Assembly (NCBI GenBank): GCA_043809585.1
Contig: JBDROZ010000121.1
Coordinates: 1-36,372 of the forward strand
Origin: Candidatus Eiseniibacteriota bacterium
GTDB lineage: Bacteria > Orphanbacterota > Orphanbacteria > Orphanbacterales > Orphanbacteraceae
Length of the DNA: 36,372 nucleotides
Direction of reading: 5' to 3'
How positions within the stretch are numbered: position 1 is the stretch's first letter; each line of letters opens with the position of its first letter. The translations under genes were made by a program, and so were the position numbers. Under the pieces are notes generated by a model. It was not told the DNA's origin and searched no databases. It saw only the letters and a program-made list of their open reading frames with translations. Positions 5,951 to 11,822 of the stretch are shown here, piece after piece.

Positions 5951-6379
5951 ATGGCTGAGGCGAAGAGCGGCGACAAGGTCCGCGTCCATTACACGGGGAA
6001 GCTGAGCGACGGCACGGTCTTCGATACCTCCGCCGAGGGGGACCCCCTCGAGTTCACCCTCGGGAAGGATTCGGTGATTCCCGGATTCGAGAACGCCGTG
6101 AGCGGCATGGCCCCGGGAGAGAGGAAGACCGCCCGGATCCCGTGCGATGACGCCTACGGCCCGCGGCGGGACGAGCTGACCCTCGAAGTGAACCGGAGCG
6201 AGTTCCCGGAAGGGGCGGATCTGAACGTGGGGCAAAGGGTGCGGGTGACCCAGCCCGGAGGCGACACCTTTCTCGTCACCGTCGCCCGGGTCGGCGAGGC
6301 GGACGTGATGCTCGACGCGAACCACCCCCTGGCGGGCGAGGACCTCGTTTTCGACATCGAGCTCGTCGAAATCGTCTAA
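5951..6379 (+). CDS. slyD: FKBP-type peptidyl-prolyl isomerase, SlyD/SlpA-like, without His-rich tail
   Basis: GDKVRVHYTGKLSDGTVFDTS, VIPGFENAVSGM, DAYG and LDANHPLAGEDLVFDIELV. SD GAGGAAAGGA. Confidence 0.85.
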   Translation: MAEAKSGDKVRVHYTGKLSDGTVFDTSAEGDPLEFTLGKDSVIPGFENAVSGMAPGERKTARIPCDDAYGPRRDELTLEVNRSEFPEGADLNVGQRVRVTQPGGDTFLVTVARVGEADVMLDANHPLAGEDLVFDIELVEIV

Positions 6380-6415: not shown

Positions 6416-6444
6416 TAGCATTTTCCAACTCTTCGTGATATACT
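6416..6444 (+). promoter_or_regulatory. Candidate sigma70 extended -10 promoter of the cys leader/cysKE operon
   Basis: TG-a-TATACT at 6436-6444 in an AT-rich patch. Weak -35 (TAGCAT, 6416-6421) at 17-bp spacing. Confidence 0.6.
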
Positions 6445-6479
6445 TAGCTCACGAATCCACCCGTTTGGAGAGGACTGAA

Positions 6480-6560
6480 ATGGACCGCCGAACCTGTTGT
6501 TGCTGTCGCGACAAATCCCGGAAGGGGGCAGGGCCTCGGCGTATCCGTATCCGCGTTTAG
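6480..6560 (+). CDS. Cys-rich leader peptide (MDRRTCCCCRDKSRKGAGPRRIRIRV, 26 aa)
   Basis: SD GGAGAGGA (6467-6474), ATG6480, TGT TGT TGC TGT at 6495-6506, TAG at 6558-6560. Lies immediately upstream of a terminator and cysK. Confidence 0.85.
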   Translation: MDRRTCCCCRDKSRKGAGPRRIRIRV

Positions 6561-6600
6561 TCGCGTAGAGAAGACGGAATGACTCGAGCCCGCGGCCCCC
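6486..6600 (+). promoter_or_regulatory. Attenuator protector and antiterminator helices
   Basis: Protector: CGCCGA(6486-91) with TCGGCG(6536-41), and CCTG(6493-96) with CAGG(6529-32). Antiterminator: GGGGGC(6524-29) with GCCCCC(6595-6600), GGGC-c-TCG(6531-38) with CGAGCCC(6585-91), and TCCGT(6544-48) with ACGGA(6574-78). Confidence 0.75.
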
Positions 6601-6619
6601 GCCGCGGGCTTTTTCGTTT
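6586..6619 (+). terminator. Attenuator intrinsic terminator upstream of cysK
   Basis: Perfect 10-bp stem AGCCCGCGGC-cccc-GCCGCGGGCT followed by TTTTCGTTT, about 60 nt before the cysK start. Confidence 0.9.
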
Positions 6620-6678
6620 CCATTCCGAAAACAGGGCGCGATGCGCCGCCGACCTTCCTCCCGGAGAAGGAGAACAGC

Positions 6679-7647
6679 ATGGGACGGATCTTTAAAGACA
6701 TCACGGAAGCGGTGGGCCGCACGCCGCTCATCGAGCTTTCCCGGTTCGCGGGGGGCGGGGCCCGCGTCCTCGGCAAGGCGGAGTTCTGCAACCCCCTGTC
6801 GAGCGTGAAGGACAGGATCGGCGTGCACATGGTGAACCGGGCCGAAAAGGACGGCCGCATCCGGCCGGGGAAGACGGTGCTGGTGGAGCCGACGAGCGGC
6901 AACACCGGCATTTCCCTCGCCTTCGTCGCGGCCGCCAAGGGCTATCGCCTGATCCTGACCATGCCCGAGACCATGACTGTGGAGCGGCGGAACATGCTCC
7001 GCGCCCTCGGCGCGGAACTGGTGCTGACGCCCGGCGAGAAGGGCATGCCCGGGGCCATCGCCCGGGCGACGGAGATCGCGGAGAGCACGCCGAACGCGGT
7101 GGTCCTGCAACAATTCGAGAATCCCGCGAACCCGGAGATTCACCGGTTCACGACGGCGGAGGAGATCTGGGATGACACGGAGGGGGGCGCCGACATTCTC
7201 GTCGCCGGTGTCGGAACGGGCGGGACCATCACGGGGGTCAGCCAGTTCTTCAAACCCCGGAAGCCGGAGTTTCGGGCGATCGCGGTGGAGCCGGTCGACT
7301 CGCCGGTCCTCTCCGGCGGCTCGCCGGGGCCCCACAAGATCCAGGGGATCGGCGCCGGTTTCATTCCGGGAATCCTGGAGATGGACCGGATCGACGAGAT
7401 CATTCAGGTGACCTTCGAGGAGGCCGTGGCGGCGGCGCGCCGGCTCGCGCGGACCGAGGGGATCCTCGCCGGGATCTCGACCGGGGCGAATGTTCACGCG
7501 GCGCGGGAGGTCGCCCTCCGGCCGGAGAACGAGGGGAAGACGATCGTGACCATCCTCTGCGACACGGGAGAGCGCTATCTGTCGACGGTGCTCTTCGCCC
7601 CGGAAGAGTCGGAAAAGAAAGCGGAGGTGGGCCATGGAAAGCGCTAG
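6679..7647 (+). CDS. cysK: Cysteine synthase A (O-acetylserine sulfhydrylase)
   Basis: PLP-lysine motif [48 protein letters not shown] and [17 protein letters not shown]. Confidence 0.97.
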
Positions 7648-8371
7648 CGTTCGGGCGGCGGCCCGAGCCCGGGGAGGGGACGCCCTCGCCGGAGCGAGGC
7701 CCTTGGGTGTCGTGGCACGGGTGCGCGAAGACATCCGGACCGTCTTCGACCGGGACCCGGCGGCTCGGAGCGTCCTCGAAGTGATCTTCTGCTACCCCGG
7801 GTTTCACGCGATGCTCCTGCACCGCGCGGCCCACGGGCTCTGGCGGCGGCGGTTCTACTTCCTCGCCCGGTGGCTCAGCCACGTCAACCGGGCCCTCACG
7901 GGCATCGAGATCCATCCGGGGGCGACCATCGGCCGGCGGTTCTTCATCGACCACGGCATGGGCGTCGTGATCGGCGAGACCACGGAGATCGGGGAGGACG
8001 TCACGCTTTATCAGGGGGTGACCCTCGGCGGGACCAGCCTCGAGAAGAAGAAACGGCACCCGACCCTCGGCAACGGCGTGATCGTCGGCGCGGGGGCGAA
8101 AGTGCTCGGCGCGCTCACCGTGGGGGTCGGGGCGCGGGTCGGCGCCGGCGCGGTGGTGGTGAAGGACGTGCCGGCCGGCGCGACGGTGGTCGGCCTCGCG
8201 GGCCGCATCGTGGGCTCCGGACGGCGGGGCGAGAAGCGGGAACTGAAGCTCGACCTCACCGAGAGCCGGGGGGACCACGACGTGCGTGTGGGCGAGGTGC
8301 TTCTCGAGCGGGAGGAGAGACCCGAGAACCCGCCGAACGGGCAGGCCCCGGAGGATGAATACGGATCCTGA
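7634..8371 (+). CDS. cysE: Serine O-acetyltransferase
   Basis: [55 protein letters not shown] and KRHPTLG. Overlaps cysK by 14 bp; the exact start is uncertain. Confidence 0.95.
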
Positions 8372-8556
8372 GCGTCTTCGCGAATCGCCCCTCCTCGGAA
8401 GGAGGGGGGGCGATCCCGGAGGGGCGACCACGGTTTTCCCCGGGTGCCGGCCGGGGCGCGACGCTCCCCCCGCGCCCCGGCCCGGCCGCAAATGGACCGG
8501 CATCCCCTCCCGCTTCCTGATAATCTGACGGGGTCGTTCACCGGAAGGAGCGGGCG

Positions 8557-9826: not shown

Positions 9827-11822
9827 CCCAAGTTCCGCAGTTCGGGGGGTGGTTTTGAGGTTTTTCAACGACTTACGGGGTCGAGTCGGCACTACATTTT
9901 GGAGATTCCGGGAGGCGTGCGGAGTCGTTGGGGGAGGCGGAGCCCGAGGCGATCGAGGAGCAGGGCTTGGGCTTTGTCGGGCCGAACGACGCAGCGGAGG
10001 CGCATTTCTCGTCTCGATCCATCGGCGAGAGGAAGGATGACATCCGTGCTCTGGATCCGGCTGAGCTCTCGGAGGATGGTTCGGGGGCTGCTGCCGAGGC
10101 CCGCTTGGCGCTGCCACTGTTCGAGCGTTTTCCAGAGGACATAGGCGAGGAAGCAGACCAGGATGTGGGCCTGGACCCGATCGGGTCTCTGGTGCCAGAT
10201 GGGGCGGAGGGAGAGGTCGCTCTTCTGGATCCGGAAGGCGGCTTCGGCTTCGGTGAGTTGGATGTATGTTTGCCAGAGAGTCTCGGGAGTCCAGTCGGCG
10301 ATGTTTGTTCGCAGAACGTAGCAGCCTTCGCTCCAACGAGCCCAGTCGTTCCACTCGGGTCGTGCGGACCAGGAGAGACGAAGCTTCGAGATCTGCGTAG
10401 TGTCTTGGAGCAGGCGGATCGTGTAGCGGCCGGCGGCGCGGGAGTTCCGCTCGAGGAGGCGGCCGATCTGTCGTTCGATCGCTCCTCGATCGAGAGGGGA
10501 GCGGGCGTGTTCGATGCGTCGGGCGAGCGAGGCGAGACCGGCTTCGATGCGAGCGGCGAACCGTTCATGCATCGCCTTTTCCTTTTCCCGGCGCTCGGCG
10601 GAGCGACAGAGGAGGAACGTCTCTTTCCCGCCCGGTCCGGCACAGAGCTTCACCTCGATCCCCTCGCGGACCGTCTTCCAGTCGGTCGCTGCGGCGATTT
10701 CCCGGCTCCACTTCTTGACGTCGCCTCGATGCGTCCCGAGGAGGTACCGCCGCCCGGTCTCTTGGAGCCACGCGAGGTTCTCCGCGCTCATCATCCCGCG
10801 GTCCATCACCCAGATTCGATCGGCAAGACCGTAGCGGGCTTCCATCGTCTCCACGATCTCCTCGACTGTGGTGACATCGACCCGGTTGCCGGGAAAGACC
10901 TCGTAGCCAAGAGGCACCCCCTCGCGTGTCACGACCAGAGCGATGCAGACTTGCTTGCAGTCCGGCCGATGGTCGCGACTGTAGCCGCGTTGGGCGAGAG
11001 GATTCCGAGCGGCGAGTCCTTCGAAGTAGGTGCTCGTGACATCGTAGAGCAGAAGGTCGTAGTCGAGGGCGAAGAGCTCGCCGAGGCGACGCACGAGATG
11101 CCGCTCGATCGCGGCCTTGTGGGGAAGCAGACGATCGAGAGCGCGATAGAGTCGATCGACGTTCACGCTCTCGCTCGGGAGTCCGAGCAGATCTTCCAGC
11201 GCTGTTGCGCGATACCAGCTCTCGGCGATGTGGAGCTCGCTGGAGGGTTCACAGAGCCGAGCGACTACCAACACGGCCGCCAGAAGAGACCAGGCGTACT
11301 CCTCGCGCCCTTCGGGCAAGAACTCTTCGCACGCCTCCTCCAATCGAAGAGCCCGCCAGAGAGTCCAACCGAGCCAGACATCCCCAAAGGATCGGCCGCG
11401 CTCGAGGCGCACTCGGTTCAGTTGAACCGGAACCGCGGTCGCGTCGCAGCAGAGGTCCTCGAAGAGCCCGTGTTGGCTCGCTCGTCCGACCATCGCGCGC
11501 GCCAGAGCCCTCGCCTTCGCACGCCCCTCAGCGTCCAACTCCCCGAGCTGCGCGACCGTCTCCTGCACCACTTTCCCGTTCCGACGAACGGATCGCACCA
11601 GACGCCAGTACGTGTGCGTCTTCCCATCCTTGCGACGAACCGTGTGCCGAAGGTACATCTCTCTCCCTCGTCACTCCGGTATCGCAGATCAAAACCGCTC
11701 AGGCAAGGGGGTAGGTCGGCACTACATGGCCCTCCGCGCCCACCCAGCACGCAAGGACACACACTTATACCGTCCCCCTCCTCGAAAAAAACCGCGAGAG
11801 GCACGAAACTGCGGAAGTCAGG
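9827..11822 (-). mobile_element. IS1634-family insertion sequence
   Basis: Imperfect TIRs CCCAAGTTCCGCAGTT (9827-9842) and AACTGCGGAAGTCAGG (11807-11822), 13/16 matches, bracket a DDE transposase. No target duplication is visible. Confidence 0.88.
9892..11658 (-). CDS. IS1634-family DDE transposase
   Basis: N-terminus [34 protein letters not shown]. Catalytic motifs [30 protein letters not shown] and Y..L..AEAAFR..KSDL.LRPIWH...RV.AHI.VCFLAY. Confidence 0.93.

Follow-up and report, generated by a model that had tools for sequence, protein, structure and literature searches.

A putative cysteine-sensing leader-peptide attenuator with an intrinsic terminator upstream of cysK-cysE in an uncultured bacterial phylum

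In the leader-peptide attenuators E. coli trpL and Salmonella hisL, a short ORF in which codons for the product of the pathway stand in tandem is followed by an intrinsic terminator ahead of the first gene; the 1:2, 2:3 and 3:4 helices are mutually exclusive, and segment 2 becomes free once a ribosome stalls on those codons. The thrL, leuL, pheL and ilv leaders are likewise classical leader-peptide transcription attenuators. The locus described here is laid out in the same way, but differs from trpL and hisL in the amino acid that would be sensed, which is cysteine, and in its host, which belongs to a small uncultured phylum. For cysteine genes in Firmicutes, the charging of tRNA-Cys is sensed by T-boxes through a terminator/antiterminator pair, without translation. 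Lyubetsky et al. 2014 reportedly predicts Rho-dependent or classic attenuation at Cys-codon leaders before sulfur genes in Actinomycetales, a prediction that is said to concern Actinobacteria only.

Two described systems are more similar. The polycysteine leaderless sORFs of mycobacteria, Ms5788A and Rv2334A, the latter before cysK1-cysE (10.1101/834739; PMC1262725), share with our locus a poly-Cys short ORF that senses, or in our locus would sense, Cys-tRNA, before cysK-cysE or other sulfur genes. According to the available text of Canestrari et al. (10.1101/834739), these ORFs are leaderless, have their Cys tract near the stop codon and no conserved terminator, and Ms5788A acts by hiding the downstream Shine–Dalgarno (SD) sequence, whereas our locus has an early Cys run, an SD-bearing ORF and a terminator as its putative output. 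The same available text states that uORF-mediated attenuation for cysteine was undescribed. The closest published prediction, going by the available text of Brewer et al. 2021 (PMC8632094), is uORFC-8-2, in which an AUG-started uORF carries adjacent Cys codons and is followed by a terminator with a U tail; read-through upon ribosome stalling was proposed for it. There, it is described only for Rhodobacterales and only before cysS (a tRNA synthetase gene), and its Cys codons number two, are mostly UGC and occupy positions 14-15. By contrast, the Cys codons of our locus number four, are mostly UGU and occupy positions 6-9, and the genes downstream are biosynthetic. As for other accounts, what is available of PMC13236596 names cysteine under translation attenuation only, and no cysteine leader is given in the available parts of PMC2965389 and PMC4833913. 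A full-text literature search, with most subscription journals outside its reach, found no tested transcription attenuator for cysteine and, within the same scope (title and start of abstract), no Cys leader that works through a terminator ahead of genes for biosynthesis.

The leader lies in a stretch of 36,372 nucleotides from Candidatus Eiseniibacteriota (contig JBDROZ010000121.1), which was analysed as a whole and is hereafter called the window; its upstream neighbour is an FKBP-type gene that ends at 6379. An extended -10 promoter element, TG-A-TATACT (TG-N-TATACT), can be read at 6436..6444 (+), from which transcription would start at ~6451. A consensus sigma-70 scan did not call this promoter, which has a poor -35 match; in the same place, the homologues show TTGACG or TTGACA and then, after 17-18 nt, TAAACT or TATACT. 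The SD sequence GGAGAGGA (6467..6474, +) sits 5 nt ahead of the ATG at 6480, which opens a leader ORF of 26 codons (6480..6560, +) that has no match in NCBIfam. A 41-residue form starting from an in-frame GTG at 6435 was rejected because its start falls inside the predicted promoter. Codons 6-9 are four tandem Cys codons, TGT TGT TGC TGT (6495..6506, +), which are the proposed sensing codons. The window has no second run of four, and 0 of 100 shuffles produced one. A search of the entire genome (4.24 Mb, 97% completeness) gave 11 ATG-started Cys-rich short ORFs, of which the window's alone is followed by a terminator. Candidates for other leader types in this genome are three, of the Trp or Ile/Val kind, and look spurious on reading.

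Three segments of the leader can form competing helices. Segment 1 (6486..6496, +) pairs with 6529-6541 to give the 1:2 protector, which is present in the free fold (duplex of -14.3 kcal/mol). The G-rich segment 2 (6524..6541, +) pairs with either segment 1 or segment 3 (6585..6600, +), the latter being the 5' arm and loop of the terminator, and its 2:3 duplex (6524-6538 with segment 3) amounts to -23.3 kcal/mol; both helices form as the sequence-only reading had claimed. That reading had also described a 10-bp GC terminator with a U tract. An intrinsic terminator is indeed present (6586..6619, +), but its stem (6586-6611) has 11 pairs, nine of them G-C, closed by a 4-nt loop (-23.3 kcal/mol), and its U tract, TTTTTCGTTT at 6610-6619, is interrupted. 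The genes that follow are cysK, encoding cysteine synthase A (6679..7647, +; TIGR01139, 437 bits for a cut-off of 351), with the SD AAGGAG at 6667-6672, and cysE, encoding serine O-acetyltransferase (7634..8371, +; TIGR01172, 245 bits for a cut-off of 211), whose first 14 nt lie within cysK and which is the sole cysE detected in the genome. The parts of the leader lie at the positions originally proposed. Directly after cysE, at 8372-8480, is a pair of GC hairpins of very high stability (-70 kcal/mol over 112 nt); they lack a clear U tract and may represent a palindromic repeat. An IS1634-family transposase is encoded at 9892-11658 (-).

The leader belongs to none of three other described types. 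An Rfam search of the window gave no match, and the T-box model (RF00230) has 0 matches in the window and 0 in the genome, which sets T-boxes aside. Membership of the mycobacterial leaderless class was rejected in view of the SD and of the 35 nt that separate the ATG from the -10 box (with a predicted start site). Pairing of the Cys tract with the downstream SD in place of a terminator, as in mycobacteria, was rejected too: in the fold of 6451-6700, the Cys tract is paired within the leader rather than with the cysK SD, and the terminator forms. Identity with uORFC-8-2, compared by what is available of its published description, was rejected because cysK is the gene downstream and because the Cys codons here number four and are codons 6-9 of the ORF. 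In the same folds, a weak hairpin spans the cysK SD (6653-6670); it is missing from most of the centroid structure and could add a translational layer.

The leader is conserved in the phylum, which was sampled with 10 genomes from seven genera and two families, the window genome being G000. A poly-Cys leader with a terminator precedes cysK-cysE in each of the 3/10 genomes that have cysE (G000, G004 and G007). In the 2/10 that have a sulfite reductase domain (G005 and G009, the latter from the second family), leader and terminator stand before an operon with siroheme (cysG-type) genes, a sulfite/nitrite reductase family gene and cysH, plus sat in G009. In other words, they directly precede the cysteine-pathway operon in 5/5 phylum genomes having one; in the remaining 5/10 (82-96% complete), neither cysE nor a sulfite reductase domain was found. 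A sixth leader comes from a metagenome contig, L231, whose CysK and CysE are 79% and 86% identical to those of the window; as G004 and G007 are of one genus, these six lineage leaders are not six independent cases. Searches of the phylum with the four-Cys pattern gave 98 matches, and examination of 30 loci and 20 regions found a terminator or a sulfur gene at five leaders only, while none of twenty further cysK-like loci in the phylum has a leader plus terminator.

The five homologues have Cys runs of 4-6 codons, and the run is the only conserved part of the peptides, whose length and remaining sequence vary freely. In 6/6 lineage leaders, the spacing from Cys run to terminator is 72-78 nt, a G-rich stretch lies equally far past the Cys run, promoter-like boxes are found just upstream (weakest in G009) and the hairpin and U tract are retained. 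GAGGA precedes the leader ATG in G004 and G007; in G005 (L117:1430-1500) and L231 (860-900), the ATG lies 9 and 6 nt past the -10 box, respectively, with no SD. Leadered and nearly leaderless forms therefore appear to coexist in one lineage, the SD being no family trait. The terminator covaries, with 5/11 pairs changed on both sides among the six leaders, a score reached by 0/500 shuffles in a control that ignores relatedness. For the antiterminator in the window's register, the six leaders show no significant covariation (56% of cells paired, with 151/500 shuffles as high). The check in relatives suggested at the outset therefore came out positive for the Cys runs and the terminator, and negative for covariation of the antiterminator. 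In an Rfam search of 20 homologous loci, one tRNA was the only match.

The genome of the window has a sulfate adenylyltransferase (sat) gene at G000:C87:44208-45323 and no match for a sulfite reductase or cysH. Since this comes with cysK-cysE, G000 probably draws sulfide from outside and would control the last two steps of cysteine synthesis, while G005 and G009 would control sulfide production instead. No cysE match exists in these two genomes (L181 and L184), both of which have a sulfate-assimilation operon; cysteine is possibly made there by another route, and their cysK-like genes are without a leader.

Taken together, we read the leader as a classical trp-type, ribosome-mediated transcription attenuator that would gauge the supply of Cys-tRNA through its Cys codons, a reading to which we assign a probability of roughly 85% and which is supported by conservation in relatives, a strict link to cysteine and sulfur genes and a folding switch that depends on ribosome position. 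The leader is real, it is conserved and it very probably functions, and cysK-cysE would most likely be switched on only during cysteine shortage. In this mechanism, polymerase would initiate at ~6451 and a ribosome would load at the ATG at 6480. With ample charged tRNA-Cys, the ribosome would clear the four Cys codons and cover segment 2, so that the 3:4 terminator could form and transcription would end at ~6612-6619, ahead of cysK; in an untranslated leader, segment 2 would be occupied by the 1:2 helix and the terminator would form as well. When Cys-tRNA is scarce, a ribosome waiting at 6495-6506 would cover segment 1 and leave 6524 onward free, and the free segment 2 would capture the 5' arm and loop of the terminator, leading to read-through into cysK-cysE. 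The start site, leader translation, termination, the response to cysteine and an inert peptide are what we infer. The hallmarks of a classical attenuator that can be seen in the sequence are a start signal, tandem Cys codons, cysteine genes downstream and an intrinsic terminator; an antiterminator that excludes the terminator, and becomes available only with a ribosome on the Cys codons, is seen in folding models only, and is sensitive to the footprint used.

In these models, the ribosome was represented by forced single-strandedness to 12, 15 or 18 nt beyond the first A-site base. With the 12-nt edge and transcripts ending at 6612 or 6619, the probability of the terminator is 0.93-0.98 for ribosome-free RNA, falls to 0.01-0.13 whichever of the four Cys codons the ribosome occupies, and is 0.94-1.00 with a ribosome at codons 12, 16, 20 or 27. 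The antiterminated fold is the 2:3 helix (6524-38 with 6585-6600), and the free fold contains the 1:2 helix. The modelled leader switches in the way proposed at the outset. In the folding models, antitermination extends over the Cys codons and ceases just past them; a ribosome on codons 2-3 causes antitermination too. With the 15-nt footprint, the fourth Cys codon stops antiterminating, and with 18 nt the third and fourth both do. The two alternative states are only ~3 kcal/mol apart. When the spacer between Cys run and terminator was shuffled, a comparable switch appeared in 3/60 cases. Of the individual helices, the 2:3 duplex was matched by 78/300 doublet shuffles of the G-rich segment in the window and by 251/300 in G005, its strength being largely due to base composition, and the wider 1:2 duplex was equalled or beaten by 13/300. 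In a nascent-RNA model, whose transcript ends at the loop of the terminator, window RNA without a ribosome also favours 2:3 (0.70), and therefore the protector must win kinetically, by forming first.

An equilibrium switch is likewise present in G004, G007 and G005 (4/60 shuffles each) and in L231 (3/30), that is, in five of the six lineage leaders. The exception is G009 (P 0.97), for which the nascent-RNA model has the terminator arm captured at 0.69 with the ribosome on the Cys codons, 0.01 when free and 0.0 at the stop codon, a capture equalled by 7/50 shuffles. For 4/8 further metagenome leaders that were tested, there was no equilibrium switch.

The choice of Cys codon is another shared property. 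The sequence-only reading had pointed to a TGT-rich run in a host that mostly uses TGC, and this is confirmed: TGT accounts for 535/4843 (11%) of the Cys codons in 1034 crudely called genes of the genome, against 3/4 in the window leader (p = 0.005 relative to genome-wide usage), and the TGT:TGC ratio is 20:5 in the five genome leaders, again against 11% TGT genome-wide. The genome has one tRNA-Cys, with anticodon GCA, which means that UGU is read by wobble, and this may lengthen the stall. What is available of PMC1183508 treats codon bias in leaders and leaves cysteine unmentioned.

Similar leaders exist well beyond the phylum. Metagenome contigs were scanned with a pattern derived from the five genome leaders, and 80 loci were analysed of at least 120 stretches. 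TGT, the spacing and the U tract are selected by the pattern itself; the association with sulfur genes does not depend on it. An ATG-started ORF no longer than 34 residues is combined with a terminator-like hairpin at 43/80 loci, with sulfur or cysteine genes downstream in 42 of these 43: a sulfite/nitrite reductase family gene in 35 (by BLASTP to one member, 5/35 having been scanned in Pfam), cysK-cysE in two, a cysteine-synthase-like gene (below cut-off or partial) in three, and, in one each, PAPS reductase and a TauE exporter then cysH. The remaining leader precedes a RimK-like ligase. In the other 37/80 loci, there was no sulfite reductase, cysK, cysE, cysH or sat, and cobA was present in one. 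One of the loci (L203:670-2288) has six Cys codons right after the start, a terminator and then cysK-cysE, and belongs to an unrelated lineage, its CysK being 51% identical to that of the window. Another (L215:1480-2620), with the poly-Cys leader before the RimK-like ATP-grasp ligase, shows a clean modelled switch (0/30 shuffles) and may mark a cysteine-using ligase.

A check that started from protein only, in which the reductase was searched against 151 genomes from the class of an Acidobacteriaceae genome (which we take to be Terriglobia), gave matches in 27. A Cys-rich short ORF lies within ~400 nt upstream of 26/27 reductase loci, and 18/27 also pass a simple terminator score; without two unpublished genomes (G141 and G157), these counts are 24/25 and 17/25. 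In these 24 leaders from the Acidobacteriota class, the TGT:TGC ratio is 93:56 and a terminator was called in 22, of which 20 have the 5' arm captured with a ribosome on the Cys codons and 15 release it again at the stop codon. When 25 Acidobacteriota-type leaders were aligned with that of the window, the terminator covaries (0/500 shuffles), and the antiterminator is 95% paired and nearly invariant, with a negative covariation test; these sequences are too short to tell whether the two groups share ancestry. Besides their sulfite reductase leader, two Acidobacteriaceae genomes have a further leader of the poly-Cys type, likewise with a terminator, upstream of a peroxiredoxin gene (L327, G062:C355; L328, G061:C49), which suggests a small Cys-leader regulon.

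At 110 cysK loci, a loose Cys pattern occurs upstream in 24, compared with 17 when the reverse strand is read, and a started ORF with at least four Cys in a row in L001, L002, L004 and the mycobacterial L103 only, meaning that most close cysK genes of other phyla are without this form of leader; two-Cys leaders would be missed by this survey. A loose three-Cys pattern in 10 genomes from named lineages was at control level overall, and following it up yielded leaders in 4/9 regions, all from two Acidobacteriaceae genomes.

Could a genuine Cys leader work in some other way? The most serious competitor, which we nevertheless consider improbable, is a leader that acts chiefly on translation or through Rho, in the manner of the mycobacterial ones, with the hairpin serving as a pause site or a leaky terminator. 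In its favour, the U tract is interrupted, Rho is encoded in the genome, folds show a local hairpin over the cysK SD and the tested mycobacterial poly-Cys leader works on translation according to the available text (10.1101/834739). Yet, the Cys codons pair inside the leader rather than with the cysK SD, the hairpin over the SD has little stability and is largely missing from the centroid structure, and the terminator hairpin with its U tract is not only kept in 6/6 lineage leaders but covaries.

Two further possibilities concern the peptide and the transcript themselves. A constitutive terminator might release a small RNA, or the mRNA of a Cys-rich, metal- or redox-binding peptide, with cysK-cysE controlled separately, for instance by some of the three Rrf2 and two LysR-domain proteins encoded in the genome, any link of which to cysK-cysE is putative. 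This is highly improbable when set against a peptide unconstrained in length and sequence outside its Cys run, a preference for the rare TGT codon, and an element that tracks cysteine-pathway operons of two kinds; moreover, no promoter-like site was called between terminator and cysK, although the scan also missed the leader promoter. Slightly less credible still is the idea that the ribosome stalls in response to its nascent peptide, or to a small ligand of that peptide (sulfide, O-acetylserine or a metal), rather than for lack of Cys-tRNA. Arrest peptides do occur in other leaders, and the leaders before peroxiredoxin in two Acidobacteriaceae genomes would fit such a scenario, but no residue is conserved beyond the Cys run, and the ribosome positions that antiterminate in the models take in the Cys run and stop shortly behind it. 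Attenuation by Cys-tRNA supply is the reading that we retain.

The initial suggestion that this is a Cys-tRNA-sensing attenuator, probably undescribed in its lineage, has gained from the conservation, gene link and fold switch; the concept of a Cys-codon leader with an intrinsic terminator, however, was already predicted before cysS in Rhodobacterales, in the available text of PMC8632094. What is new is the lineage, together with the finding that a single leader design stands before two different operons. The mechanism is textbook, which limits the surprise, but the locus holds the full four-segment design before cysK-cysE and offers a compact construct for a direct test. That the leader tracks the cysteine-supplying operon in 5/5 cases in the phylum, on two unrelated operons, shows how such regulators are redeployed.

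On balance, we favour a broader view in which terminator-based leader-peptide attenuation would be a widespread, so far unrecognised control of cysteine synthesis outside model bacteria. The leader would be a portable module placed at the step that limits cysteine supply (cysK-cysE here, and a sulfate-to-sulfide operon in sister genera and Acidobacteriota), wobble-read UGU would sharpen sensing, and the peroxiredoxin and the RimK-like ligase would be marked as cysteine-responsive. Cys-run leaders with terminators could also help to link genes of unknown function in uncultured bacteria to sulfur metabolism.
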